64,000 nt of DNA from Lachnospiraceae bacterium (lineage in GTDB: Bacteria > Bacillota > Clostridia > Lachnospirales > Lachnospiraceae). Below the pieces are notes generated by a model. The model saw only the letters and a list, made by a program, of their open reading frames with translations, was not told the origin of the DNA and made no database searches. This document shows, piece by piece, positions 51,231-64,000 of the stretch; positions within the stretch are counted from its first letter, which is position 1; each line of letters opens with the position of its first letter. The DNA lies in NCBI GenBank assembly GCA_045600945.1, contig JAZRYX010000027.1:1730-65729 (forward strand). Reading direction: 5' to 3'. Position numbers and translations under genes: made by a program.

Positions 51231-51268
51231 AAGAGCTTGCAGCATCAAACCGCAAGCTCTTATTTTTA
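51231..51268 (+). terminator. Bidirectional terminator between the SH3 gene and the end of the minus-strand cluster
   Basis: AAGAGCTTGC-11 nt-GCAAGCTCTT (10-bp perfect stem) followed by ATTTTTATTT, with an A-rich 5' flank. Confidence 0.8.
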
Positions 51269-53185
51269 TTTCATCCGACTGTTAAGTGTCCTTATTCCGC
51301 TTAAATATCCTCCCGGTGTTCCATCAAGTTTATATATGTTTCCTTCCGTAACATGCGCATACAATTTAATATCATCTATATAACACTGCGCCGTCGCCGA
51401 TATCGATATGTTTCCTTTGCACTGGCTTCCGAAGTCAATGTCTATTGTCTGCGAACCCGGGGCGAAGCCTGCACTCTTGCTGACTCCTCCGACTGTTACG
51501 GTAACGGTTCCGCTTTCCGATGAATCTACTTTAAGCTGCGCTTTTGTGCTGTAGGAACTATTGAATCCTCTGCCTGTCAGATCCTGGGAAATCACTGCTC
51601 CCAGATTCATATGCATTTTTTTATTGCCGTTTATATCTTCAACAGATGCACCGCTTACACTCCAGCCTTTTGTATCTCTTCCGAACTCGGGATTGTAAAT
51701 GATGCTGTCGGCATAGTCCTTATATGTCCATAAGCCGTACCCTGTGGTCTGTGCGTTGAATACGCCTGCCATAGCCGCCAGATAGGCATTTACATCTGAA
51801 ACCCTGGCAAGATTTTCATATCCCGGAGTCGTCTCCATATACAGGAACTGGTCTATGAATACCGGCTTACCCGCTGCCTGTACTCTTGCGATAAGCGAGG
51901 AACTCATTGCTGCCGCATTTGCCGGCGGTATAACTGTTCCGTCCGGAAATCCCATAGCAGCCGTAACTATTGTTGACGAATACGGTGCATTACCGCATCC
52001 GAATGTTTTTACATGCGAGTATGGCTTTCCGTCGCTTGTCATATCATCAAAGAGTCTGCACTCCATCGACAGATTCGGAAATACCTGCTGTGTCTGCGTG
52101 AGAAGCTCCATCAGCTTGTTATCCATATCTTCGTATCCGTAACATGTAGATGCAAGTGATGACCAGAAATCCTCCCAAGTAATAAAACCTCCGATAAAGT
52201 TCGGATGAGGGGCGCATATCTGATAAACCCTCTGGGCGTATTTAAGCCATGCTGTCCTTTCGTTTCCATTTGTGAACAGACGGTTGAATCTGTTCATCGA
52301 TGAGCTTTGATCTGCATAGTCCCATGTGTATCCGAGCCTGATCATAGCCTGAAGTCCGCATGTTCTGGCTCTGCCCAGCATTTCATTAAGCTTTGTAAGT
52401 GCGGTCTCATCAAAACCTGTTATCGGATCCGGCTGTATCTCCCTCCAGGGAACGCAGAATATTACGGTATTAAATCCGTCCGCTTTTATCTTTGCGAAAT
52501 CAGCTTCTGCCTGCGCATGCTCGCTGTTGAGAAAATTAACAGGCCACTCGTTTCCGAAATATGTGACTGCCTTTGTCTTGGCAAGAGTTTCATCTTTTCT
52601 TCCTACTATCATAAAACTCATAAGCAGGAAAAATGCTATCATTTTAAGACTTATTTTCATCTTCGGTTTTATCCTTTTTGTGTATAACAGTCTGACTTTA
52701 TCAAGTAATATATCATATATGAGCATAACTAAAATCATGATTACATAATATACCGTATTAATTACCATACTCACGGACTTAAACTCGGCAAGAACCGCCT
52801 GCAGCTTCAGTACGTAGCAAAGCACAAAATACATTAAACCGATAGCCACAGAAAATACCGCCACTTTTACCGCAATACAGAGCGGTTTTGGCTTTATTTT
52901 CTCAAGTATCGGTTTCAGCATGGGATAGTATCCTACGAAAATGTAAAAAGCAGCCGCTTCTTTATCCGCCAGCAGTAAAACGGAAAGTAATGATACCGTG
53001 ATCCAGACCATCCATCCCCATTTGACATTTATCTGGTCGATAACCGGTATAAGGAATATACCGGCAAAAAGCGGTGCTGCATATGTCAGCACCGGTATAA
53101 GGCTGCTAAGCGATAAGATGGCCACACTGAGTGCGGCCATCAAACCACTGAATGCAATTTTAAAGCTTAACTTAATAGTACTCAC
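51266..53185 (-). CDS. Fusion ORF: N-terminal ~175-aa polytopic membrane module, then an internal signal-peptide-like segment, a TIM-barrel glycosidase-like domain and a CBM-like C-terminal domain
   Basis: 639 aa with a GTG start overlapping the upstream stop by 14 nt. Residues 176-200 read MKISLKMIAFFLLMSFMIVGRKDETLA (signal-like). DGFNTVIFCVPWREIQPDP resembles GH5/GH42-type barrels. The C-terminus ...GWSVSGASVEDINGN...CYIDDIKLY is CBM4/9-like. Confidence 0.6.
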   Translation of the reverse strand: MSTIKLSFKIAFSGLMAALSVAILSLSSLIPVLTYAAPLFAGIFLIPVIDQINVKWGWMVWITVSLLSVLLLADKEAAAFYIFVGYYPMLKPILEKIKPKPLCIAVKVAVFSVAIGLMYFVLCYVLKLQAVLAEFKSVSMVINTVYYVIMILVMLIYDILLDKVRLLYTKRIKPKMKISLKMIAFFLLMSFMIVGRKDETLAKTKAVTYFGNEWPVNFLNSEHAQAEADFAKIKADGFNTVIFCVPWREIQPDPITGFDETALTKLNEMLGRARTCGLQAMIRLGYTWDYADQSSSMNRFNRLFTNGNERTAWLKYAQRVYQICAPHPNFIGGFITWEDFWSSLASTCYGYEDMDNKLMELLTQTQQVFPNLSMECRLFDDMTSDGKPYSHVKTFGCGNAPYSSTIVTAAMGFPDGTVIPPANAAAMSSSLIARVQAAGKPVFIDQFLYMETTPGYENLARVSDVNAYLAAMAGVFNAQTTGYGLWTYKDYADSIIYNPEFGRDTKGWSVSGASVEDINGNKKMHMNLGAVISQDLTGRGFNSSYSTKAQLKVDSSESGTVTVTVGGVSKSAGFAPGSQTIDIDFGSQCKGNISISATAQCYIDDIKLYAHVTEGNIYKLDGTPGGYLSGIRTLNSRMK

Positions 53186-54380
53186 CCGGTACTACAAGTA
53201 CCAGATCGGCGATCGGGAAGCTTGCGCACGGATGTATCTCACCGCTCTCTTTATCTGCCCAACGTCTGCCGTCGGTTTCTTCAGGTATGAAGACTTCACC
53301 CGAGATGAGTCTTGAACGGCACCATCCGCACTCACCGCTGCGGCAGCGTGAAGGAGCTTTGATTCCCGCTCTTTCGATTGCTACAAGCAGAGGCTCGTTG
53401 GCATCGGCATCAATAACTTTCTCTGTATCACCCTGACGAACAGTTACCTTAAATACTTTATCTTTCTTATCCTGCGGATATCCCGGCTGTTCCCAGACTT
53501 TCTTGGTCGCTCCGAGAAGCTCACGGCGTACATGCTTTCTGTCGAGTCCGAGTTTCTCAACCTCGCCTGCCGCAAATCTGTACATCGCCTCAGGTCCGCA
53601 GATAAATACGCTGTAATCATCAGACGGTGCATATTTCCTGATAAGTTCTGCCGTGATAAATCCGTTTTCATATCCTTCCTTTGTCTCATCTGAAAGAACG
53701 TGAATGACTTTTACCTTATCACATACTGATGTGATGGCATCAAGTTCTGCCTTGAAAAGAATCGCTTTTTCTGTCTTACTTCCAAAAAGAATGGTAAGAC
53801 TAAAATCTTCGATTCCGTCACGGATAGCATATGCCATTGAAAGGAACGGTGTGATTCCCGAACCGCCGGCAAGAGCTACTACGTTCTTTGAATCACGAAG
53901 TGACTCATAGTAGAACTGTCCCTGTCCGTCTGATCCGATAACTTCATCACCAATCTTGAAATTATCCAGCATCCAATCAGCTGCAAATCCGCCCGGATTT
54001 TTCTTAACGGTAATTGCGATTTTTCCTTCAAGCGCCCACTTCGGTGAAGATGAGATTGAATACGGGCGGGTTACAAAGCTGTTCCCGATCGGAAGTTTTA
54101 AAGAGATGTACTGACCTGCCCTGAAATATGCTGCAGGTTTTCCGTCTGCTCTCTTTAATACAAATGTCTTGGCATCTGCATCTTCATGATCCATTATCTC
54201 TGTGATAATGAACTTCTGATAATCAGGATGCATAGCCTTAGCGAAGTTATTAATAGGATAATCAGCCGTAATTTCTTTTGCGGGTGCCGCATCTATTGCC
54301 TGCTGACGTGTCTTACTGAGGTTTGCAAATTTAAGCATATCAAGAAGTCCGATAAGACCTACTTTAACATTAAGTGCCAT
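53172..54380 (-). CDS. FNR-type FAD/NAD(P)-binding reductase with a C-terminal plant-type 2Fe-2S ferredoxin domain
   Basis: RPYSISSSP (FAD RxYS motif), VVALAGGSGITP (NAD-binding motif), and C-terminal CRSGECGWCRSRLISGEV...HPCASF (2Fe-2S Cys pattern). Confidence 0.8.
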   Translation of the reverse strand: MALNVKVGLIGLLDMLKFANLSKTRQQAIDAAPAKEITADYPINNFAKAMHPDYQKFIITEIMDHEDADAKTFVLKRADGKPAAYFRAGQYISLKLPIGNSFVTRPYSISSSPKWALEGKIAITVKKNPGGFAADWMLDNFKIGDEVIGSDGQGQFYYESLRDSKNVVALAGGSGITPFLSMAYAIRDGIEDFSLTILFGSKTEKAILFKAELDAITSVCDKVKVIHVLSDETKEGYENGFITAELIRKYAPSDDYSVFICGPEAMYRFAAGEVEKLGLDRKHVRRELLGATKKVWEQPGYPQDKKDKVFKVTVRQGDTEKVIDADANEPLLVAIERAGIKAPSRCRSGECGWCRSRLISGEVFIPEETDGRRWADKESGEIHPCASFPIADLVLVVPGEYY

Positions 54381-55921
54381 TATTTGTTACCTCCTTCCTT
54401 AAGCTCGCTGCACGCCATGGCAGCACACATATCTCCGTTGATCCATGTTGATGAATATCCGTCGCCTCTGAATGAAGCTGCGCCGATATGGCGAAGTCCC
54501 TTGATCGGGAACTCCTCAGGAATCATCATCATACGAGCAAGCATCGCGTCCCATCCTCCGAGGTCATAACCGTAGGTTGATCCCTCAGGTGTTCCGAGAT
54601 ATCTTGCAAATGTCATAGGTGTTGCTATCTCAACCTCTTCGATATAAGGCTCGATGTCAACGCCGTATTTCTCTTTCATTGTCGTAAGACACTTCTTTGC
54701 GAGTTTATCTTTAAGCTTATAGTAGTCTTCCGGTTTCACGTTGTTCCAGTCATCCGGTCCATACATTGATGTAAAGCTGCATACGCAGGTTCCTTCCGGT
54801 GAGAAATCGGGAATAAGCGTGTTGTAGCAAAGAAGGATAGTAAACTCGTTTGTATCTATATGCTTGAAGCTCTCAAACTCTTTACGTGTATCGCATGTTC
54901 CCGGGAAGAATACGGTATAGTCTTTGATGCCAAGTTCTTCAGCTGTCTTGTTAAGTGCGAAATAGCAAACGAACATTCTTGCCGAGTAATTATGATTACG
55001 AGCCGCCGAAAGTTTCTTCTCTCTTTCCGGTACAAGTTCCTTCGGCATCATCTTTGCATATATGATATCAGGGTTAATGTTGGCAAGAACCTGCTTGCAC
55101 TCTACCGTGCCGAGGCTTGTCTTAACTCCGCAGATATGATCTCCGTCAAACAGGAACTCTTCCGCCCTGCAGTTAAACCAGGCTTCTCCGCCAAGCTCAT
55201 AGAATCTGTTCATGAATGTCATAGAGATCTCATGAGATGTATGATGCGGGATAACCGCTTTTCTTGTGATATACATATCGAGCATGTTGCCGAAATGAAG
55301 GAAGTTGATCTCATCAAGCGGGACTCCTAAGTAACACCAGTATACTGAAAGGATATCTATGGCTTTCTGCGGGAGCTTGATTGCTTTCTTCATAACATCA
55401 AGTGCCGGATAGCCGCAGGTTCTGAGTGTATTCGGGAAATGCTCCTGCATATACTTGGAATCGTTTGGTGTTCCGTCGTTCATATACTCAACGGCTGCTC
55501 TTACTTCTTCGAAAAGATCAAACAAAGTGTTCATCTTCTCTCTTGTTCCCGGAACATACTCCTCCATCTTATCAATGAAAGCTTCACGTCCTGTCGGCAT
55601 AGAAATGTCCATAGGTGTTCCGTCGGAATATTTGGAAATACAGCGATAACAATCCGGAACCGTGATCCAGTCAACATTGATACCGTTTCTTTCCATCATA
55701 CGTCTTACATGACCCTTGTTATCATCCGGACCGAAGTCACAGATTTCATGAACACTTGGGTCGAATTCAAACCTACCTCTTCTGAAGCTGGACGCACATC
55801 CACCCGGAAGGTTATGCTGATCGATCAAAAGTGTCTTTTTTCCTTCACAGACAGCTTTTACTGCAGCACTAAGTCCGGCGTTTCCTGCTCCAACCACAAC
55901 TACATCGTACTTTGTTGCCAT
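54380..55921 (-). CDS. CrtI/phytoene-desaturase-family NAD(P)/FAD-dependent oxidoreductase
   Basis: The N-terminus YDVVVVGAGNAGLSAAVKAVCEGKKTLLIDQHNLPGGCASSF is the GxGxxG-type amine-oxidase/CrtI dinucleotide fold. Length is 513 aa. Confidence 0.75.
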   Translation of the reverse strand: MATKYDVVVVGAGNAGLSAAVKAVCEGKKTLLIDQHNLPGGCASSFRRGRFEFDPSVHEICDFGPDDNKGHVRRMMERNGINVDWITVPDCYRCISKYSDGTPMDISMPTGREAFIDKMEEYVPGTREKMNTLFDLFEEVRAAVEYMNDGTPNDSKYMQEHFPNTLRTCGYPALDVMKKAIKLPQKAIDILSVYWCYLGVPLDEINFLHFGNMLDMYITRKAVIPHHTSHEISMTFMNRFYELGGEAWFNCRAEEFLFDGDHICGVKTSLGTVECKQVLANINPDIIYAKMMPKELVPEREKKLSAARNHNYSARMFVCYFALNKTAEELGIKDYTVFFPGTCDTRKEFESFKHIDTNEFTILLCYNTLIPDFSPEGTCVCSFTSMYGPDDWNNVKPEDYYKLKDKLAKKCLTTMKEKYGVDIEPYIEEVEIATPMTFARYLGTPEGSTYGYDLGGWDAMLARMMMIPEEFPIKGLRHIGAASFRGDGYSSTWINGDMCAAMACSELKEGGNK

Positions 55922-57369
55922 AAAGCCTCTCCTTTCTTTAATATCTCGATTTTTCTTTCATAGAATTTCAAAGAATCATTATTTTTATAATACTCTTCAC
56001 AACCGTATCTTGCAATGAACCTTGAAGAATAATATCCTATCGTAAGTTCGGTAACCAGTATGAGCATCTCCTGTCCTTCACCGAAAACTTCTTCGACAAA
56101 CTTGAAAAGATTGGAAAGTCTTTTACCTGCCACAACAGCGTCTGATTTCATCTTTTCAAGCATCTCATCATAATCCGATTTGATATGTGCAAAATCCGAC
56201 TGTGATGTTATATGTCTGTTTAAGAACTTAAGAACCGTCTCATACTTGTCTCTTTTATCTGACGAAAGCACTCCCATCTTACGGAATCTGTGATAAAGCA
56301 CTTCCTCCTCTTCAGTCGCGATTATAAGATCTTTTCCTTCTTTAACTTCTTTCAGTATCTTGAGAAGTTCGGTTATTACATCTTCCTGTTTCATAACAGC
56401 GGTTATGCCGGCATAAACACTATCCATCAGAAGTCCGAGAAGGCTTATTCTTTCGTCAAATCCCGCCTCTTTTGCCCGGTTCTTGATTTCCGCGGGTGCA
56501 TTTCCTGAAAGTATCTCCTCAATCTTATAATCGGATTTATATTTGTTATACAGGTCATAATAGGTTGCAAAGTCTTCTGCGATTTCGGGGTTCTGTATAT
56601 ACTGTTCTATCAGTTTTTTATCAACCGGTATCGCCCTTTGTTCATACAGTTTGATAATATCACTTAAGTCTATCCAGCCTCGTGCCGTAACGAAATTTTT
56701 ACCGTCTACGGTCTCTTCGATCTTATAGAAATATTCTTTTCTGATATCAAGATATGTAAGTATCGCTGCATGTGTTTCGTGCTTATATGCGTATGCTTTC
56801 CATGCATCATAGTCCGGTTCTATCTCGACTTTTTTCAGTCTGTCCCATGTCACTATATCGAACTCTCTTGCACTTCTGTTATAGGCGATCGGGTTTCCGG
56901 CCGTGACTACTATCCATCCGTCGGGAACTTTGTGACGACCGAAAGTCTTAAACTGCAGAAACTGAAGCATGGTCGGTGTAAGTGTTTCCGATGCACAGTT
57001 TACTTCATCAAGAAACAGTATCCCTTCTTTTAGTCCGGTTTCCTCCATGCAATCATAAACCGATGAGATAATCTCGCTCATGGTATATTCGGAAACATCA
57101 TATTCATCTTCCCCGAACTTCTTGTGAACTATCTTCGGAAGTCCCAGTGCGGACTGCCTCGTATGATGAGTGATGGAGTATGAAACCAGTCCCAGTCCGA
57201 GTTCCTCCGCAACCTGTCTGACGATGGCTGTCTTGCCTATTCCGGGAGGACCCATAAGAAACACGGGTCTTAACTGCGAAGGCTCCAGCACATAATTACC
57301 GTTGGCATCACGTGTGGAGTAGGCCTTTATAGTATTAAATACCTGTTCTTTTGCTTCGGCTATATTCAT
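55900..57369 (-). CDS. AAA+ ATPase (AAA_5/MoxR-like core) with a long helical C-terminal extension
   Basis: Walker A FLMGPPGIGKTAIV, Walker B ILFLDEVNCA, VVTAGNP; 489 aa. Its start overlaps the upstream stop (ATGA). Confidence 0.8.
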   Translation of the reverse strand: MNIAEAKEQVFNTIKAYSTRDANGNYVLEPSQLRPVFLMGPPGIGKTAIVRQVAEELGLGLVSYSITHHTRQSALGLPKIVHKKFGEDEYDVSEYTMSEIISSVYDCMEETGLKEGILFLDEVNCASETLTPTMLQFLQFKTFGRHKVPDGWIVVTAGNPIAYNRSAREFDIVTWDRLKKVEIEPDYDAWKAYAYKHETHAAILTYLDIRKEYFYKIEETVDGKNFVTARGWIDLSDIIKLYEQRAIPVDKKLIEQYIQNPEIAEDFATYYDLYNKYKSDYKIEEILSGNAPAEIKNRAKEAGFDERISLLGLLMDSVYAGITAVMKQEDVITELLKILKEVKEGKDLIIATEEEEVLYHRFRKMGVLSSDKRDKYETVLKFLNRHITSQSDFAHIKSDYDEMLEKMKSDAVVAGKRLSNLFKFVEEVFGEGQEMLILVTELTIGYYSSRFIARYGCEEYYKNNDSLKFYERKIEILKKGEALWQQSTM

Positions 57370-58040
57370 AGTTCGAAATCTCCCATGTTAACGGTTTCTT
57401 TATTTCCTGCTTCAAGCAGCAATGCAACTGCCTCGGTCTCTTTTCTGATATTGGCCTCTTCGATATATTGTCCGATATTTTCCTTTCTCAGAAGTTTTTC
57501 TGAAACCAATCCGCTGAGCGCTGCTGTATTATTGAACTTAAGTATGCGTTCCATTATCAATGCTTCATTTTCTTTGATGAAAGTCTCGGCATGCAGGCGC
57601 GTTTTTTCATTGTGTTTCTCAGGACATGTGCACCAGAGCAAAGTATAAAGCAGTTCCTCAGGCGGATTGCATACCTGCGGATATCCGGCCGCCACATATC
57701 CCTCTAAAAGATTTCTGCAGTCCCCAAAGGCATCGGTTCCAATAAAAGTATTATCATTCGGAATCTCTATATATTTAAGATCCGGACATGAGAAAAATGC
57801 TTTCTCGTCTATAGTCTCAATCGACTTAGGGATAATGACTTTCTCCAGTCCGCTTTCCCCGAATGCTTCTTCCCTTATAGTTTTAAGTGTTTGCGGAAGC
57901 TTTACTGATTTGAGGTTAATGCACCCGAAAAACGCTACTTCACCTATATCTTCAATTCCCTCGGGAATATCTATGTGAGTTAATTCTTCGTTTTGAGCGT
58001 ATGCACCCGGCTCTATTTTTTTATCTGCCGAATCTGTCAT
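57366..58040 (-). CDS. BspA-type leucine-rich-repeat protein without a signal peptide
   Basis: Repeats IPEGIEDIGEVAFFGCINLKSVKLPQTLKTIREEAFGESGLEKVIIPKSIETIDEKAFFSCPDLKYIEIP. There is no N-terminal hydrophobic segment. Length is 224 aa. Confidence 0.75.
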   Translation of the reverse strand: MTDSADKKIEPGAYAQNEELTHIDIPEGIEDIGEVAFFGCINLKSVKLPQTLKTIREEAFGESGLEKVIIPKSIETIDEKAFFSCPDLKYIEIPNDNTFIGTDAFGDCRNLLEGYVAAGYPQVCNPPEELLYTLLWCTCPEKHNEKTRLHAETFIKENEALIMERILKFNNTAALSGLVSEKLLRKENIGQYIEEANIRKETEAVALLLEAGNKETVNMGDFEL

Positions 58041-59346
58041 TTAGTATATCTTCCTCCGGGAGATAAAGTTTCATCGCCCATTCCGGTGTCCATACATCAC
58101 TGAGCCCGTCATCATGAATGATAAAGGCCACATCATAATCCGGTTTCTCACCCGGGAATACTCCCTTGCCGTCGGTGAAATACAAAACACCTCTTAAATC
58201 TGTCAGCTTTTTCTGAGTTACAAGTTCATCAACGTAAGCAAAGAGCGGCCTGAAATCAGTCTCTCCGAGACCTTTTATCTCCATCTTTTTAAGATAGTCA
58301 TCAAAATCTTCCTTGCATGTTATATAAGCAACATCCTGCACCTTGTCATCACATTGGATAATATACATATTGACTTTGGTGCTGAAGTTTTCCTGTTTTG
58401 CAAGTATATCATGCGTATGCTGGACGAACTTCTGAACCACTTCCCCCTCTACGCTGCCGGACGTATCGATTGCGATAACGAAATCACGAATCTTATTCTG
58501 ATCTCTGTATTCGAGCGGTTCAATCAGCGGTATGTTACCGTATAGTTCAAGTCCGTATGTGTAGTAATTGTTGTCGAACTCTTCATCCGACAGTCTCATA
58601 ACCTCACCGTGGACTCCGAAATGTTTCAGAAACTCCGTATAATCATGCCTCGCTTTATTTATGTCCCTCAGGTTTTGAGTAAGTGCATTCTCATCACCCA
58701 TTATGACTTCAAGTTCAGTCTCCATGCGTTTGGAGATTATTTCCCACAGTTCATTTAAGTCTATGTCGGCCTCGGCAGCATTGGCAGAACGCCCTGTTCC
58801 GAACCATATGCTATGATCATCACCGACAAACGGTACTCTGTTACCCAGCAGTTCACTGTCGGGAACTTTCTTATCAATGAGCCATCTGTAGATCCGTTCT
58901 GCGGTAAGTGCCGGCAATTCTTCTTTGAGCATTGCCGTCGTAGCCTGCTGCGCACTTGATCTTCTGCAATCCGTCACCGGCTTTGAAAGTTCATTTATCG
59001 CGTTCTCCACCGCTACATCACATGCAAGATTCCATGCGTTTTTGTTTATATCTTTTCCGACATAATAGTGTCTGAAAACACAATGAAGCAGGCTGTGCAA
59101 TATGTTTCTCGTAACAACTGTCTGTTCATTCTGATAAAGGCTGATGACAAACCACGGGCTGTATAGTATGTTTCTCCCGTCAGTTGCAAATGTTGCCTGC
59201 ATCTCCGGGACAAATCTGATATTGGCTATTGCCCTGTCCATATATCTAAGATTCACCAGGAGCTGATTTCTTGAAAGCACCAGAATATCAGCCGCAAGTT
59301 CCTGCGCCTTTGAAAGATTGTCTTCCTTTTTATCTCCGGTACTCAT
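58021..59346 (-). CDS. VWA-domain protein with an N-terminal zincin-like (DUF2201_N-like) domain
   Basis: MIDAS motif VIAIDTSGSVEG. The N-terminal helix ...NILHSLLHCVFRHYY carries HSLLH in place of HExxH. Length is 441 aa. Confidence 0.7.
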   Translation of the reverse strand: MSTGDKKEDNLSKAQELAADILVLSRNQLLVNLRYMDRAIANIRFVPEMQATFATDGRNILYSPWFVISLYQNEQTVVTRNILHSLLHCVFRHYYVGKDINKNAWNLACDVAVENAINELSKPVTDCRRSSAQQATTAMLKEELPALTAERIYRWLIDKKVPDSELLGNRVPFVGDDHSIWFGTGRSANAAEADIDLNELWEIISKRMETELEVIMGDENALTQNLRDINKARHDYTEFLKHFGVHGEVMRLSDEEFDNNYYTYGLELYGNIPLIEPLEYRDQNKIRDFVIAIDTSGSVEGEVVQKFVQHTHDILAKQENFSTKVNMYIIQCDDKVQDVAYITCKEDFDDYLKKMEIKGLGETDFRPLFAYVDELVTQKKLTDLRGVLYFTDGKGVFPGEKPDYDVAFIIHDDGLSDVWTPEWAMKLYLPEEDILNDRFGR

Positions 59347-59349
59347 CCG

Positions 59350-59520
59350 TCACATCTGATGCCTTACAACCTGATATTCATCTCCGTTTCTGTAAAACGG
59401 ACAATCTTTATAGTGACTTAACTGCAGTCGATAAACTTCATCTTCATCCATGTCCACGCTGCAGTAATACTCTTCATATTCCTCATCCCATGCGTAGTAC
59501 GCACATGTATCACAACTCAT
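59350..59520 (-). CDS. Small acidic 4-Cys protein (56 aa), not in the supplied ORF track because it is shorter than 60 aa
   Basis: Translated by hand as MSCDTCAYYAWDEEYEEYYCSVDMDEDEVYRLQLSHYKDCPFYRNGDEYQVVRHQM. Its ATG overlaps the upstream transporter stop (TAATG), and its stop lies 3 nt before the VWA gene ATG. Confidence 0.6.
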   Translation of the reverse strand: MSCDTCAYYAWDEEYEEYYCSVDMDEDEVYRLQLSHYKDCPFYRNGDEYQVVRHQM

Positions 59521-61331
59521 TATTCCGTACGCTCCGCCATGCCCAACGCATTGAAATAATAATCATGCTTTGTTTTATATTGTTCATTAAAGAACTCATC
59601 ATTACCCTGATGAAGCTCATGTATATAATCATGATGAGACTGCATAACATGTTCATCAGTAAGTGCGAGTGTATATATACCTATATTGGAACATTGATCT
59701 GCAATACGTTCTATATTCACCAGTGCATCAAGGAATATGAGTCCCGAGTACATATTGCAGCGCCCTTCACGAAGTCTGCGCGTGTGGTTTGCCTTAAGCA
59801 CGCTTACAAGATCATCTACCACTTCCTCAACCGGCTCGATTTTTCTTGCGGCCTCGAAATCAGAGTTACTGAATGCCTCATATGTATTTGAAAGAATGTC
59901 TCTTAATGCGTTCGATAAAACCAGCAGTTCGTTCTGAGCCTGTGGTGTGAAGCTTGCTCCTTTTTCATGGATCTCGGAAGCATTTTCCGTAAGATTCACT
60001 GCCAGATCTCCGATTCTCTCGAACTCGCTGAAACACTGCATATAATAATTCAGGATATCATTGTTCCTGCCGTTGGGAACATGAGTTCCGAGTCCGATAA
60101 GGTAGTTATCTACAGCATCGGCCAGGCGGTCTATGCTGTCTTCGTTTTGATTGATTACATCTATTGCTTCCTGACTGAACTCGTCGAATTCATTCATTGC
60201 ATTGACTACTGCTTCCTGCGCCATCTTTGCCATAGCCTTTATTGCTTCCCTTGCTGAATTAAGCGCGAGGGCGGGTGATGCGTACAGCTTCTCATCCAGC
60301 ATAGCGATTTCATTATCGATGCTTGTTCCGATTTTCTTGTCATCGGGAATGATTTTCATAGAAAGCTTCTCATATACGCCTGCAAGCGGCATAAGAAGAA
60401 GCGCGCAGGTTAAGTTAAATACCGTATGCGTATTTGCGATAAGACCGGAGTTCATGGTGGCATTCCATATTCCGTCCAGCGCACCGACTTTGTGAAGTAT
60501 CGTAACTCCTAAAAATACCAGAATGGTCTCGCAAAGATTGAACATAATGTGGATGGCACCTGTTCTTTTGGCATCCGCCTTGGCACCTATTGAACAAACC
60601 ATCGCCGTCGTTACACAATCGCCCAGATAAACACCGATGATAATCGGATAAGTCGCCTTAAATGTCAGCGCACCTGTGATTGAAAATGCCTGCAATATAC
60701 CGATGGTAGCTGACGATGACTGAAGAACAAATGCAACAGCGACACCGACGAGATATGCAAGGAATGGATTGTCTCCGAACTTTACGAAAAGATTTGTGAA
60801 TGCCGGATCCTGTGAAAGCGGCTCAACAGCACTTGTCATCGTAAGAAGTCCCGTAAACAGGATGCCGAAACCCATTGCTACAGTGCCGATGGTCTTAACC
60901 TTTGCCTTATTGTTATTAAGAAACATAATGCAAATGATACCGATGACCGCGGCAATCGGAGCAAGTGTGGATGGTTTGAAGATGTTAAGCCATGATGATC
61001 CGGAAGCATCTATATCAAGAAGCCTTATAATCTGGCCGGTAATTGTAGTACCGACATTGGCTCCGAGTATGATTCCGACTGACTGATGCAGCGTAAGTAT
61101 ACCTGCACCTACAAGACCTGATGTTATGACTATCGTCGCTGTTGAAGACTGTATGATAGCAGTCATCAGCATACCGACAAGAAAACCTTTGATGGGGTTG
61201 TTTGTTACTTTTTCAAGAACTGATTTAAGAGTATCTGTAGATCCCTCTTTCAGCCCGTCGCCCATGACCCTCATTCCGTACAGGAAGAGGGCCAGTCCGC
61301 CGAGTAGAGTTATGATATTAAAAATCGACAT
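59520..61331 (-). CDS. Na/Pi cotransporter family protein with C-terminal PhoU-like domains
   Basis: 603 aa. N-terminal membrane domain LLGGLALFLYGMRVMGDGLK...IQSSTATIVI (duplicated NptA repeat: ...LQSSSATIGI). The C-terminal helical region is PhoU-like. Confidence 0.85.
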   Translation of the reverse strand: MSIFNIITLLGGLALFLYGMRVMGDGLKEGSTDTLKSVLEKVTNNPIKGFLVGMLMTAIIQSSTATIVITSGLVGAGILTLHQSVGIILGANVGTTITGQIIRLLDIDASGSSWLNIFKPSTLAPIAAVIGIICIMFLNNNKAKVKTIGTVAMGFGILFTGLLTMTSAVEPLSQDPAFTNLFVKFGDNPFLAYLVGVAVAFVLQSSSATIGILQAFSITGALTFKATYPIIIGVYLGDCVTTAMVCSIGAKADAKRTGAIHIMFNLCETILVFLGVTILHKVGALDGIWNATMNSGLIANTHTVFNLTCALLLMPLAGVYEKLSMKIIPDDKKIGTSIDNEIAMLDEKLYASPALALNSAREAIKAMAKMAQEAVVNAMNEFDEFSQEAIDVINQNEDSIDRLADAVDNYLIGLGTHVPNGRNNDILNYYMQCFSEFERIGDLAVNLTENASEIHEKGASFTPQAQNELLVLSNALRDILSNTYEAFSNSDFEAARKIEPVEEVVDDLVSVLKANHTRRLREGRCNMYSGLIFLDALVNIERIADQCSNIGIYTLALTDEHVMQSHHDYIHELHQGNDEFFNEQYKTKHDYYFNALGMAERTE

Positions 61332-61453: not shown

Positions 61454-62636
61454 TTAATTTATAAACTTCAAAAACTTGCGTGCAATGCGTTTCATGGAAG
61501 AAAACAATTTATTTACCGTCCTGCACAACCTGCGACCTGCAGCTTTAAAAAAACTTGACTCTTTATATTTAGTCATACAATAAAAGGCCAAAGATCCTGT
61601 ATAATCTGACACTACATTTTTTATCCGTTTTTGATTATCTTTGATATAGTACTTATAATCTTTAAAATTTTCACGCCAATATAATCTGTTATTTATACTT
61701 CTATCTTCAAAATAGTCCTTAAGATTTTGACTGACATAGTAAAAAAACGGTCCTTCCCACGGAAAGTCTTTATTCACAAAAACCGATAAATGACAATCTA
61801 CAATTGTAATACTTTGATTCCATAAAGTGTTGACCGTCATCTGATAACCCGTCAAATAGTTCGCCCGCGGAATCAATATTACACTCGCATCATTCTCTAA
61901 AAAAATCGAATTATGAGAACATGAGCCAATCGTCGAGGCAAAGCATTTACAATTTAAAAGTATATTGAGCTGCTCAGAAAACGTATATTTTTCCGGAGCA
62001 ATTACTTTAAAATCCTTATTGGAAAAATATTTTTCTAATTTGTCTTCTCCATAAGAGTTTGTTTTCCATTGTGATGCAGTAAAATACACTTTATCATATC
62101 CTGTTTCTTTTTTATTCTTCCGGCCATAATCTCTTATTTCATCAATCAACCACTTGTACTCTTCGTTTTGATACAAAATCTCGTTTTACAAAAAGAAAAA
62201 TCAAATCCTTGTAGGCTAAAGTTTCCTTTAAGTGCAAATCTAACAATCTATGTTTTGAAGTGATCTCCGTTAAAAATTTGGTTTCCAAAATATTCTCCTC
62301 GTCTAAATAAATGAATATATGACTTTTAAAGTCCTGATAAAAAAGGATTTCATTATATACAGGTAGATTCGGCAGCCATTTACAATTGTCTTTTCCCTTG
62401 GTTCTTCAATACCCACATAGAACGTCTGCAGCAATTCAGACTTCCACAAATCATCTCCGTCCAAGTATATTTTACCATAAAAATATCAAAAAAAAAGAGT
62501 CAGGCTGATGCCCAACGAAGTAAAGGAATTGTCAGTTATAAAAAAACGGAATGGTCCCAAAGATATGATTTCAAAATTAATGTTAAGACATTCTACATCC
62601 TTAACTGATTTATTATGAACTTCTTGAATAATTAAT
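61454..62636 (-). pseudogene. Decayed glycosyltransferase 61/DUF563-like gene in three pieces
   Basis: The 240-aa piece (61454-62176, TTG-initiated in the track) has ...FASTIGSCSHNSIFL..., typical of the GT61 C-terminal half. Upstream, a ~105-codon piece is in another frame. A further ~48-codon piece has no start codon and is separated by an in-frame TGA at the end of a T9 run (plus-strand A9 at 62486-62494). Confidence 0.55.
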
Positions 62637-63049
62637 CCTCAACAGCTTGCGGACTGCATTTTGCAGTACCTAACGGACACTGATGCATCTCAGGGCATAC
62701 ACTTTGCAGGGCAAAACGTACACCCTAAAATAATTTAATTCGTTACTAAATTGACGACTTTATTATTACCGTGAAGTGCTTTGTCGCCCTCTCACGATTG
62801 CATTTGAAGATACTTCATCATTCAGTATCATGGATTTACAGCTTTTGGACTTACGTTGAGAGACCATAAAACTATCGTCTAATTCCATAAGTAAATTTAT
62901 TCCTCCTTTTTTTAAAAAACTACTGATTTCTTTTCTTTTGAATAAAAAAATGAAATAATATTCAAGTTATTAAACTTTCACTCATATTGTGTGCTTCTTT
63001 CTCCTTAATCAACGAAAATGCGTTGAGATGTTTATTTCTATCTGCAGTT

Positions 63050-63691
63050 TTAGATAAATGGGTAAATGCTACCCCTTTTATAATCTGCTCCTAAAATATC
63101 TACTTCACCATCGACAATTTTTAATCTATGCTCATCAATTATTTTTACCAATCTTTCCAGCATATCTATCTGTAAATCCAAAATCGAATCATAATCGTGT
63201 GTCTCCAAGAACGCTTTCAAAGGTATAATGCTTTGCATAATTATTTTTCCATTATCCATACTATCATCAATAAAGTGAGCAGTATTTCCAACCAACAATG
63301 TGTTTCCATGGTCAACAGCTTGATCTATTGCTCTAATTCCCGGAAACATTGGCAACAAAGATGGATGAAAATTAATTAATCGATAATTATATTTTTCTAG
63401 TAATTTACCGCTCAATAAATGTTCCCCAAATGAAAACAAGTAATCAATATTATTTTTTTCTAATTGTTTTAGAATAAAATTCGAAATTAAGAGGTTTTTT
63501 TTCTTACGCGTTCCAACAAGTTGACAGTCATCAATAACCTCTAAAGTCAAATTATTACTCTCTATTAATTTTTTCAAATTACAATCTACTTGCGCATCTG
63601 ATACCACCAATATCCAGTCCTTTGTACATAGTTTCTGTATTGCTTTCAACAATCTATCAGATTTTCCCGAAATATAAAAAGCATATCGCAT
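63050..63691 (-). CDS. Formyltransferase (PurN/Fmt-like catalytic domain; likely sugar N-formyltransferase given the context)
   Basis: ...RLINFHPSLLPMFPGIRAIDQA...GNTAHFIDDSMDNGKIIMQ has the formyl-transferase N/H/D motifs. AAGGAG lies 10 nt upstream of the ATG. Confidence 0.8.
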   Translation of the reverse strand: MRYAFYISGKSDRLLKAIQKLCTKDWILVVSDAQVDCNLKKLIESNNLTLEVIDDCQLVGTRKKKNLLISNFILKQLEKNNIDYLFSFGEHLLSGKLLEKYNYRLINFHPSLLPMFPGIRAIDQAVDHGNTLLVGNTAHFIDDSMDNGKIIMQSIIPLKAFLETHDYDSILDLQIDMLERLVKIIDEHRLKIVDGEVDILGADYKRGSIYPFI

Positions 63692-63971
63692 AACTCATTT
63701 TCTCCTTGCGCCACAAGTAATAGTACTCTAATATCTGTTATCAATGGTTCCCCATCTAAGCTGAAAATAAGCCCATTTTTTGAAATTCTCAAAGCGTTCA
63801 ACTTCACATAAAAATCCTCCACTGGTTCTCTATATGATTTTTCATCAAGCTTTTTTTTATCCTAGAAAGCTTTGATACAATACCACCATTTTGGGTGAAT
63901 TTAGCAATAATACCTGTCCTTTTCTTTTCACAGTTATTATTGATAATAACTATATTAATCATGGGTGTCAT
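63646..63971 (-). pseudogene. Small ORF apparently split by a frameshift at an A8 tract
   Basis: Frame 1 reads MTPMINIVIINNNCEKKRTGIIAKFTQNGGIVSKLSRIKK, then stops shortly after the A8 run (plus-strand T8 at 63851-63858). Adding one A would continue it as KLDEKSYREPVEDFYVKLNALRISKNGLIFSLDGEPLITDIRVLLLVAQGENE.... Confidence 0.3.
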
Positions 63972-64000
63972 AGGATTTGCAACATCACGCCACCATTTAT

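Follow-up and report, generated by a model that had tools for sequence, protein, structure and literature searches.

An AAA+ ATPase, a leucine-rich repeat protein and a degenerate zincin-VWA protein encoded together with a two-component flavoenzyme in gut and rumen Clostridia

What role does a cytoplasmic leucine-rich repeat (LRR) protein play when its gene lies, in overlapping reading frames, between those of an AAA+ ATPase and a von Willebrand factor A (VWA) protein with a degenerate metallopeptidase site? Such a trio is found on the minus strand of a 64,000-nucleotide (nt) stretch of Lachnospiraceae DNA (assembly GCA_045600945.1, contig JAZRYX010000027.1, positions 1,730 to 65,729; here, the window). 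Few chaperone-like systems of bacteria are as widespread, or as poorly understood, as MoxR-VWA pairs, whose choice of clients is largely unexplained. In the family described here, separate cytoplasmic LRR proteins with a recognizable, putative docking tail appear to have taken over the choice of clients. We propose, with about as much confidence as doubt, that the trio would constitute a ternary ATP-driven remodeling module of the MoxR-VWA kind, which in the window would be dedicated to the two-component flavoenzyme encoded directly downstream; its most likely task would be that of an ATP-driven helper for the assembly or activation of this enzyme.

The five-gene cassette

Open reading frames (ORFs) were called on the minus strand between 51.2 and 61.3 kb; all coordinates are positions in the window. 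In the order of transcription, the trio and the two enzyme genes are as follows (aa, amino acids; FNR, ferredoxin-NADP+ reductase).

58021-59346, minus strand: VWA protein (putative pseudo-zincin domain plus VWA domain), 441 aa; Pfam DUF2201_N and DUF2201
57366-58040, minus strand: BspA-type LRR protein, 224 aa; Pfam LRR_5
55900-57369, minus strand: MoxR-like (AAA_5-type) AAA+ ATPase, 489 aa; Pfam AAA, AAA_5 and bpMoxR
54380-55921, minus strand: CrtI/CrtISO-family FAD-dependent oxidoreductase (flavoenzyme), 513 aa; Pfam NAD_binding_8 and FAD_oxidored
53172-54380, minus strand: FNR-type reductase, 402 aa; Pfam FAD_binding_6, NAD_binding_1 and a C-terminal 2Fe-2S Fer2 domain

The initial annotation of this DNA had listed the three genes of the trio together with a MIDAS (metal ion-dependent adhesion site), an HSLLH motif and intact Walker A and B motifs, all of which were recovered by our ORF calls, motif inspection and Pfam searches. 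The overlapping reading frames that it described within the trio measure 20 nt (VWA/LRR) and 4 nt (LRR/AAA), and the AAA and flavoenzyme genes overlap by 22 nt, with overlapping stop and start codons. At the level of the sequence, this arrangement shows the VWA, LRR, AAA, flavoenzyme and reductase genes to be translationally coupled. None of the five soluble proteins contained a hydrophobic segment by Kyte-Doolittle hydropathy.

In Lachnospiraceae, Oscillospiraceae and Mogibacterium, look-ups of VWA homologues recovered the order VWA-LRR-AAA-flavoenzyme-reductase, each time with flanks that were unrelated. Scanning genomes with the LRR family as seed yielded 26 species, all of them gut or rumen Clostridia, and the genes of the related loci were taken from our own ORF calls and classed by phmmer against the window proteins. 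VWA and AAA genes flanked the LRR gene in 24 of the 26 species, and the flavoenzyme/reductase pair was located within 7 kb of it in 23. Among these 23 species the position of the pair varied: it could be upstream or downstream, be encoded on the opposite strand, or occur as two copies, one on each side. Proximity that is kept while the gene order is shuffled is a classic sign of functional coupling. Judged by these neighborhoods, the conserved unit is a cassette of five genes, trio plus flavoenzyme plus reductase; the trio proposed in the initial annotation is real but, at this locus, forms only part of the unit. The look-ups and the 26-species scan also agreed that the LRR ORF is conserved in orthologous loci.

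Two genomes contained an LRR paralogue beside flavoenzyme/reductase pairs and a GntR/FCD regulator at a locus without VWA or AAA genes, which ties the LRR protein to the enzyme rather than to the motor. In a survey conducted from the enzyme side, flavoenzyme and reductase genes were adjacent in 79 of 80 loci, and all flavoenzyme orthologues of at least 72% identity with room on the contig carried the trio. The flavoenzyme was the best conserved of the five proteins, followed by the reductase, the ATPase, the VWA protein and the LRR protein; one contig gave identities to the window proteins of 98, 87, 80, 80 and 65%, respectively. The stop/start overlap between the AAA and flavoenzyme genes was likewise present in orthologous loci.

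By its domain assignments and sequence matches, the flavoenzyme is a flavoprotein of the CrtI/CrtISO family with an NAD(P)H-FNR-2Fe-2S donor. Its NCBIfam match to carotenoid isomerase spanned the full length but scored far below the cut-off, and its sequence matches in the Protein Data Bank (PDB) were 4rep and 4dgk; the reductase gave sub-threshold PaaE/GbcB-like matches in NCBIfam and PDB sequence matches to 1krh and 2pia. NCBIfam held no family for the VWA protein and only far sub-threshold matches for the other proteins. Family membership points, if weakly, to an enzyme that probably reduces or isomerizes a C=C bond of a lipophilic substrate. A literature search linking CrtI-like enzymes to rumen biohydrogenation returned nothing usable. 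In Vescimonas and relatives, a 236-aa GntR/FCD regulator is encoded between two flavoenzyme genes (assigned by Pfam in one locus, with a weak FadR_C match). Some other flavoenzyme/reductase pairs, paralogous ones among them, appear to have AMP-ligase, crotonase, hydroxyacyl-CoA dehydrogenase, acyl-CoA-type, DegV-like and TetR-like neighbors, as judged by eye from their N termini; a fatty-acyl (lipid or acyl-CoA) substrate is faintly hinted at.

Domains and motifs of the three proteins

Five short motifs are central to the interpretation of the trio.

59068-59097, minus strand: HSLLHCVFRH, degenerate zincin motif of the VWA protein (residues 84-93), HExxHxxxxH with Glu replaced by Ser
58453-58467, minus strand: DTSGS, MIDAS sequence of the VWA protein (residues 294-298), with GETD and FTDG downstream
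57369-57380, minus strand: DFEL-COOH, C-terminal tail of the LRR protein with an acidic-aromatic-x-Leu end, putative docking peptide
57229-57252, minus strand: GPPGIGKT, Walker A of the ATPase (residues 40-47), conserved in the family
57004-57021, minus strand: ILFLDE, Walker B of the ATPase (residues 117-122), followed by sensor-1 AGNP and a DR arginine-finger region

The domain content of all three proteins, which the initial annotation had left to profile searches, was assigned by Pfam. For the VWA protein, these searches returned DUF2201_N ("putative metallopeptidase," E = 2e-10) and the VWA-like DUF2201 (E = 8e-13), and 5711 homologues were found at E ≤ 1e-5. Each residue of HSLLHCVFRH found its counterpart in the aligned motifs of two phage proteins, Bacillus phage G gp576 (HEVLHPALGH) and Thermus phage phiFa gp30 (HELLHIAFLH), and H84, H88 and H93 were invariant across the cellular and phage sequences in the alignment. 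Motif position 2 was S, M, T, I, C, L, V, A or G in 109/109 VWA ORFs from Clostridial genomes and never Glu, whereas on viral contigs it was E (HExxH) in 72 of the 77 VWA ORFs with a readable motif. The alignment thus places the loss of Glu, which the initial annotation had read from HSLLH, at the genuine zincin active site and throughout the cellular branch. Because Glu is lost at the true zincin site in all 109 cellular homologues, it is a reasonable reading that the VWA protein is a pseudo-peptidase acting as a non-proteolytic scaffold; since the three His ligands are kept, a metal site may persist. In the VWA domain, D294/S296/S298, T363/D364 and T391/D392 were invariant in the family alignments, with conservation of the MIDAS followed over 105 sequences.

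The AlphaFold2 (AF2) model of the VWA protein comprised a VWA domain and a helical N-terminal domain, the latter mostly above 80 on the pLDDT (predicted local distance difference test) scale with dips to about 60-70. The VWA domain matched the integrin I, VWF A2 and CLCA1 VWA domains in the PDB with a probability of 1.00. The full-length model matched predicted phage "metallopeptidase/VWA-like" proteins (E about 1e-15), and Acidianus two-tailed virus (ATV) ORF892 appeared lower in the same list. PDB sequence searches with the VWA protein, alone or as a profile with its phage homologues, yielded no solved relative, and in the PDB fold search VWA-domain matches dominated and the zincin fold was not confirmed against solved zincins. 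The zincin assignment draws on three sources: the Pfam match, the alignment to HExxH homologues and the full-length phage fold matches. Residues 256-280 (58507-58581, minus strand; EFD..Y.YG..Y...PL.EPLEY) were among the most conserved stretches of the VWA protein but formed the least confident region of the AF2 model and were lacking in the phage homologues; they may fold only on a partner.

The LRR protein gave a Pfam match to LRR_5 (E = 1.3e-27) and a PDB sequence match to 4fs7 (E = 1.5e-42). Residues from about 7 to 116 form four to five BspA-type LRR_5 repeats, and residues 126-213 constitute a six-helix C-terminal domain with a WCTCPxxH motif that is invariant or nearly so. The AF2 model reached a pLDDT of 91.5 and matched the folds of 6mlx and 4fs7 at a root mean square deviation of 1.2-1.5 Å. 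These matches ran through the LRR half only; no structural relative of the C-terminal helical domain, which appears ankyrin-like by eye, was identified in the fold search. Elsewhere, LRR proteins of the BspA type are surface proteins. In the window protein, the highest 17-residue Kyte-Doolittle mean was 1.09, compared to 2.5-2.6 for the two membrane proteins of the same operon, and no signal peptide or anchor was seen in this hydropathy screen, the only one applied. The repeat type and cytoplasmic location noted in the initial annotation are thus borne out. The last nine residues (216-224) had a pLDDT below 50 and are predicted to be disordered. In the family alignment F222 was nearly invariant and L224 invariant, and nearly all short LRR orthologues ended in [DE]F[EDAST]L-COOH; we infer that this tail is a docking peptide. 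A single-query search of 1.84 billion proteins with the C-terminal domain retrieved only 36 representative clusters; nearly all were 230-300 aa long and had the domain at the C terminus. An iterated profile detected a related helical module in 79 ORFs adjoining VWA-AAA pairs.

The ATPase matched Pfam AAA (E = 1.8e-9) and AAA_5 (E = 1.9e-7), both above the gathering cut-offs, and bpMoxR with 27.3 bits against a cut-off of 27. GPPGIGKT, ILFLDE, AGNP and the DR region were conserved over 82 family members. Further matches included phrog_1297 (E = 2e-39), midasin as the best PDB sequence match (6or5, E = 1.5e-7) and the AAA+ protein gp34 of Thermus phage phiFa (28% identity over the AAA+ core, E = 1e-24); the window ATPase has a helical C-terminal extension of about 300 aa, and compared to gp34 it has about 250 extra residues at the C terminus. 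An insert in helix 2 of the AAA+ core marks the ATPases of the MoxR clade (PMC7159879). In the window protein about 50 residues, including a conserved THHTRQSAxGLP and a hairpin-like stretch, separate strand 2 from Walker B, which is consistent with such an insert. AAA genes were found beside VWA genes in 39/48 full-flank cellular loci and in 70/80 viral loci.

Family-wide LRR partnership and known relatives

A scan with the VWA profile located loci in at least 554 species. LRR neighbors were counted at loci flanked on each side by 3 kb or more, with control loci drawn from genomes of the same kinds. Of 48 Clostridial loci, 39 had one to five LRR_5 genes beside the VWA-AAA pair, whereas an LRR_5 gene was present in only 1 of 60 controls (Fisher p = 1.5e-19). 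The presence of LRR genes with such pairs, which the initial annotation had suggested surveying, is thus recurrent, and since an LRR_5 partner turns up throughout the family, in several gene orders, it may fairly be called an "adaptor." A hydropathy screen found no hydrophobic segment in 99 of 102 LRR ORFs beside VWA-AAA pairs. Many of the partners were 400-800 aa long and arranged in tandem arrays. Nine large partners examined by Pfam contained only LRR_5, DUF4132 and DUF6273 (DUF4132 in four of the nine) and no toxin-like or nuclease domain.

A clade of Roseburia/Butyrivibrio Lachnospiraceae, which includes the cultured Roseburia faecis JCM 17581, Butyrivibrio sp. INlla21 and X503, carried a fixed LRR(about 300 aa)-VWA(HMxxH)-AAA trio among housekeeping genes. 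This Roseburia-type trio was present in 48 of 52 bacterial loci, the remaining four being cut by contig ends, and its LRR proteins ended in ...LMEYQR...[ST]L[DE][DE]W-COOH or ...EFxL-COOH. A correlation between the type of LRR tail and the residue replacing Glu followed clade boundaries and was discounted as independent evidence. The VWA protein of GenBank entry MT835935.1 ("Bacteriophage sp.") shares 99% identity with the chromosomal one of R. faecis JCM 17581 (NZ_CP173697.1), and the ORFs flanking its gene resemble FolC, DegV, an aminopeptidase and a branched-chain aminotransferase by eye; the entry is probably a bacterial fragment misfiled as phage.

LRR-free relatives were observed as well. 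Metagenome-assembled genomes (MAGs) of Anaerovoracaceae carry a second VWA-AAA pair between two gene groups, one with a tetrapyrrole methylase, an ABC transporter and a SirC-like gene and the other with a URO-D-type methyltransferase, a B12-binding corrinoid protein and RACo. These neighbors were assigned by Pfam on one locus, and the other five loci match it by gene order and size; they suggest a corrinoid enzyme as client of this paralogue. Two Methanomassiliicoccales MAGs encode Glu-less VWA relatives (HCxxH) with an AAA gene nearby and no LRR gene; gut Clostridia and methyl-reducing methanogens may have exchanged such genes.

The closest known counterpart of the window pair is the phage AAA+/metallopeptidase-VWA pair (PHROG 1297 plus 1314; phiFa gp34 plus gp30; Bacillus phage G gp576), to which it is homologous in sequence and fold. 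In tblastn searches the VWA protein matched phage homologues at E values of 4e-14 and 8e-12, and the phrog matches of the pair had E values of 2e-39 and 5e-41. Both pairs combine a zincin plus VWA two-domain layout, HxxxHxxxxH, a MIDAS and an ATPase partner. The phage form differs in several respects: its VWA protein keeps the catalytic Glu (72/77), unlike the Glu-less cellular branch; none of 75 phage-type loci had an LRR neighbor, whereas the cellular branch has LRR partners; the ATPase is shorter (335 aa for phiFa gp34, compared to 489 aa); and the linker insert EFD...PLxEPLEY conserved in cellular VWA proteins is absent. Iyer et al. (2021) described the pair of (jumbo) phages as a MoxR-VWA chaperone/co-chaperone with an N-terminal metallopeptidase and proposed that the relatives in phages and archaeal viruses assemble virion or tail structures (PMC7824862). 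The virion-assembly function of the phage pair is itself only predicted. In RefSeq and PHROGs, Bacillus phage G gp576 and PHROG 1314 are named "HNH endonuclease," a name to which their DUF2201_N plus VWA content gives no support; it is probably a propagated annotation error.

NorQ-NorD, CbbQ-CbbO, CoxD-CoxE, RavA-ViaA and MoxR resemble the window locus in that an AAA_5-type ATPase and a MIDAS-containing VWA protein are encoded beside a redox enzyme or metalloenzyme, which the named pairs service. The window set adds a pseudo-zincin domain and an LRR protein as a third component, and the likeness seen is one of layout. To our knowledge, a flavoenzyme/FNR pair has not been reported as a client of any MoxR system. 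Kaur et al. (2020) concluded that MoxR-VWA pairs work through metal-dependent binding of peptides or acidic residues at the MIDAS and that many of them service a neighboring enzyme (PMC7159879). The logic we propose would be common to these enzyme-dedicated pairs: the VWA protein would grip an acidic residue or peptide while the ATPase remodels the client.

More distant parallels concern single features. Midasin/Rea1 has AAA_5 modules and a MIDAS that captures an acidic residue of its substrate in order to pull on it; it is, however, a single giant polypeptide of eukaryotic ribosome biogenesis, and the similarity of the ATPase is limited to the P-loop region of its AAA_5 modules. The yehI/yehL-yehM-yehP-yehQ genes of E. 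coli and the Bat operon of Bacteroides, like the window, combine a MoxR-type ATPase and a VWA protein with large solenoid or repeat proteins. Bat proteins are membrane anchored and contain tetratricopeptide repeats rather than LRRs. Membership in the YehL/YehP subfamily was ruled out by BLAST; YehP is VWA_CoxE by Pfam, as opposed to DUF2201 in the window, and has no zincin domain, whereas the window VWA protein has a pseudo-zincin. DUF4132 is a domain of E. coli YehI, encoded beside yehL (MoxR)-yehM-yehP (VWA_CoxE)-yehQ (K-12, 2196000-2216000), and is also fused to large LRR_5 proteins beside Clostridial VWA-AAA pairs; its occurrence in both settings indicates that the same accessory domain accompanies two unrelated MoxR-VWA lineages.

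Literature searches (DUF2201, PF09967/PF13203, DUF4132, MoxR plus LRR plus von Willebrand plus Clostridia) found no description of the trio, and no LRR-containing MoxR-VWA system, Glu-less DUF2201_N branch or LRR C-terminal tail was found in the literature. The components are of known kinds; what is new is their joining into a ternary set, the way this set differs from the active form of phages, and its link to a flavoenzyme. The proposal of the initial annotation withstood the three refutations that it had itself named: the LRR gene is conserved, the HSLLH helix falls on the zincin site, and the family did not turn out to be a known, functionally assigned system.

Proposed role, alternatives and genomic surroundings

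In the mechanism that we favor, the surface of the LRR protein would hold the client, i.e., the flavoenzyme, the reductase or their complex, and its tail (...[DE]F-x-L-COOH) would plug into the VWA protein. The acidic residue of the tail might sit on the MIDAS metal, and/or the peptide might occupy the dead zincin cleft, which would bind it without cutting. The VWA protein would couple the LRR protein and its client to the hexameric ATPase, and ATP hydrolysis would remodel the client by loading of FAD or 2Fe-2S, by assembly of the two subunits or by reactivation or release of an inhibited state, in the way that NorQ-NorD, CbbQ-CbbO, CoxD-CoxE and RavA-ViaA remodel their enzymes. As for its origin, the cellular pair would have descended from a phage-type AAA/active-zincin-VWA pair, with the Glu-less state and the LRR partnership as marks of the cellular Clostridial branch. 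We count in favor of this mechanism that the LRR-free VWA-AAA pairs of Anaerovoracaceae are also located in a cofactor-enzyme context. If it is true, many signal-less BspA-type LRR proteins of gut Firmicutes would gain a first function, and a protease domain would have been turned into a non-cutting peptide clamp, in contrast to its active phage relatives. The system would moreover have a concrete client, a CrtI-like flavoenzyme with its FNR/2Fe-2S reductase, and this very conserved two-component reductase of rumen and hindgut bacteria would need an accessory factor for heterologous expression.

Several observations weigh against a module dedicated to the flavoenzyme. Sixty-seven of the 80 flavoenzyme/reductase loci, which hold the more distant pairs, lacked the trio within 7 kb, although it may be encoded elsewhere in those genomes, and the enzyme family does not, by this count, generally appear to need the trio nearby. 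Most of the family has no obvious adjacent client enzyme, as in the Roseburia-type trios and in Oscillospiraceae loci with 2-5 LRR genes; the idea of a client adaptor is therefore extrapolated from one clade. The scores of the ATPase on AAA_5 and bpMoxR are modest, the MoxR-clade helix-2 insert was judged from sequence spacing only, and BLASTP of the ATPase and the VWA protein against E. coli YehL and YehP gave E values of about 1 or higher. The scarcity of trios beside enzyme pairs, and of enzyme pairs beside trios, would also fit a lineage-specific accident of gene order that brought the flavoenzyme and reductase next to a trio with a general housekeeping role, as would the presence of both a redox-linked and a redox-free VWA-AAA set in some genomes. 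We nevertheless consider such an accident improbable: the linkage has outlasted rearrangement and duplication in at least three families, the short LRR subfamily with the C-terminal domain is narrow (the 36 representative clusters) and co-occurs with the enzyme pair in the genomic survey, and the stop/start overlap of the AAA and flavoenzyme genes is shared between the window and orthologous loci. An equally improbable alternative in our judgment is that the LRR proteins are substrates, not adaptors, and that the AAA-VWA pair folds, assembles, disassembles or hands over LRR proteins by way of the tail for a larger intracellular or envelope-associated structure, with the flavoenzyme link being secondary. 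The LRR protein is indeed the most constant neighbor of the pair across clades, whereas client-like enzymes occur in some clades only, and a tail and a helical module are conserved among the partners, as might be expected of a recognition tag. In addition, assembly of virion or tail structures has been proposed for the relatives in phages and archaeal viruses (PMC7824862), the fold matches include ATV ORF892, and the repeats are of a type otherwise found at the cell surface. However, the trio is not accompanied by any conserved membrane or export component, the LRR protein is a small one (224 aa) that is confidently predicted to fold alone (pLDDT of 91.5), and LRR paralogues are kept with flavoenzyme/reductase pairs at loci devoid of VWA and AAA.

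The initial annotation had left a choice between a chaperone and an NTPase-based sensing or conflict system, and of the two the chaperone or activase fits better. In a conflict (immune) system, the LRR protein would sense invader molecules, and the MoxR-VWA core would set the threshold of the response, as in the systems of Kaur et al. (2020). Those ternary systems share with the window a MoxR-VWA core, a repeat-containing third partner and the frequent presence of inactive peptidase domains, although no LRR version of them is described (PMC7159879). Pattern sensing is a classic role of intracellular LRRs, the ATPase narrowly attains the gathering score of bpMoxR, and many relatives have 2-5 tandem, divergent LRR_5 paralogues per VWA-AAA pair, which is reminiscent of a repertoire. 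Nonetheless, Pfam searches of the window proteins and their neighbors revealed no VMAP, iSTAND, FtsH or beta-propeller component and no effector or effector-associated domain, the nine large LRR partners were free of toxin-like and nuclease domains, and PADLOC run on the five proteins returned only weak, P-loop-only IetA matches on the trio. The flanks are metabolic or housekeeping genes without mobile or defense genes, the Roseburia-type trio is a fixed single set family-wide, unlike patchy defense islands, and translational coupling links the cassette to an enzyme that is very conserved (98% identity, compared to 65% for the LRR protein). We therefore regard a conflict role at this locus as very unlikely, and that reading stays open only for relatives with tandem LRR arrays. 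A wider reading, to which we give limited credence, would regard the whole family as a recognition machine in which one AAA+ motor and a dead-protease/VWA hub serve changeable LRR (often LRR plus DUF4132) receptors via their tails. The window cassette would then be a specialized case, and the arrays would form a surveillance repertoire for foreign or damaged proteins, i.e., an undescribed LRR immune or quality-control system. Compared with these alternatives, we favor the remodeling module with the flavoenzyme as client for the window.

The cassette is part of a longer predicted transcription unit, of which the remaining elements are as follows.

59520-61331, minus strand: Na/Pi cotransporter-PhoU protein, 603 aa
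59350-59520, minus strand: DUF6472 protein with four Cys, 56 aa; Pfam E = 1e-24
51266-53185, minus strand: membrane plus GH5-like protein, 639 aa; final gene of the operon
51231-51261, minus strand: terminator-like hairpin with a 13-bp stem, closing the transcription unit after the 51266-53185 gene

From the cotransporter gene onward, the spacings between consecutive genes are a 1-nt overlap, a 3-nt gap and overlaps of 20, 4, 22, 1 and 14 nt, and no comparable terminator was found on the minus strand between 61331 and 51266. The DUF6472 protein (CxxC...C...C) is encoded upstream of the VWA gene in the three closest Lachnospiraceae genomes but not in other clades; given this restriction to a Lachnospiraceae subclade, its being part of the system is uncertain. 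The 51266-53185 protein consists of a multi-pass membrane domain (about 200 aa) fused to a weak GH5/cellulase-like domain, and a close homologue of its gene follows the cassette in the Lachnospiraceae subclade only. At the end of the window, positions 62001-64000 have a G+C content of 31.5%, compared to about 43% in the remaining window, and include an ORF (63050-63691) that appears formyltransferase-like by eye; this segment may be a horizontally acquired, glycan-type region.

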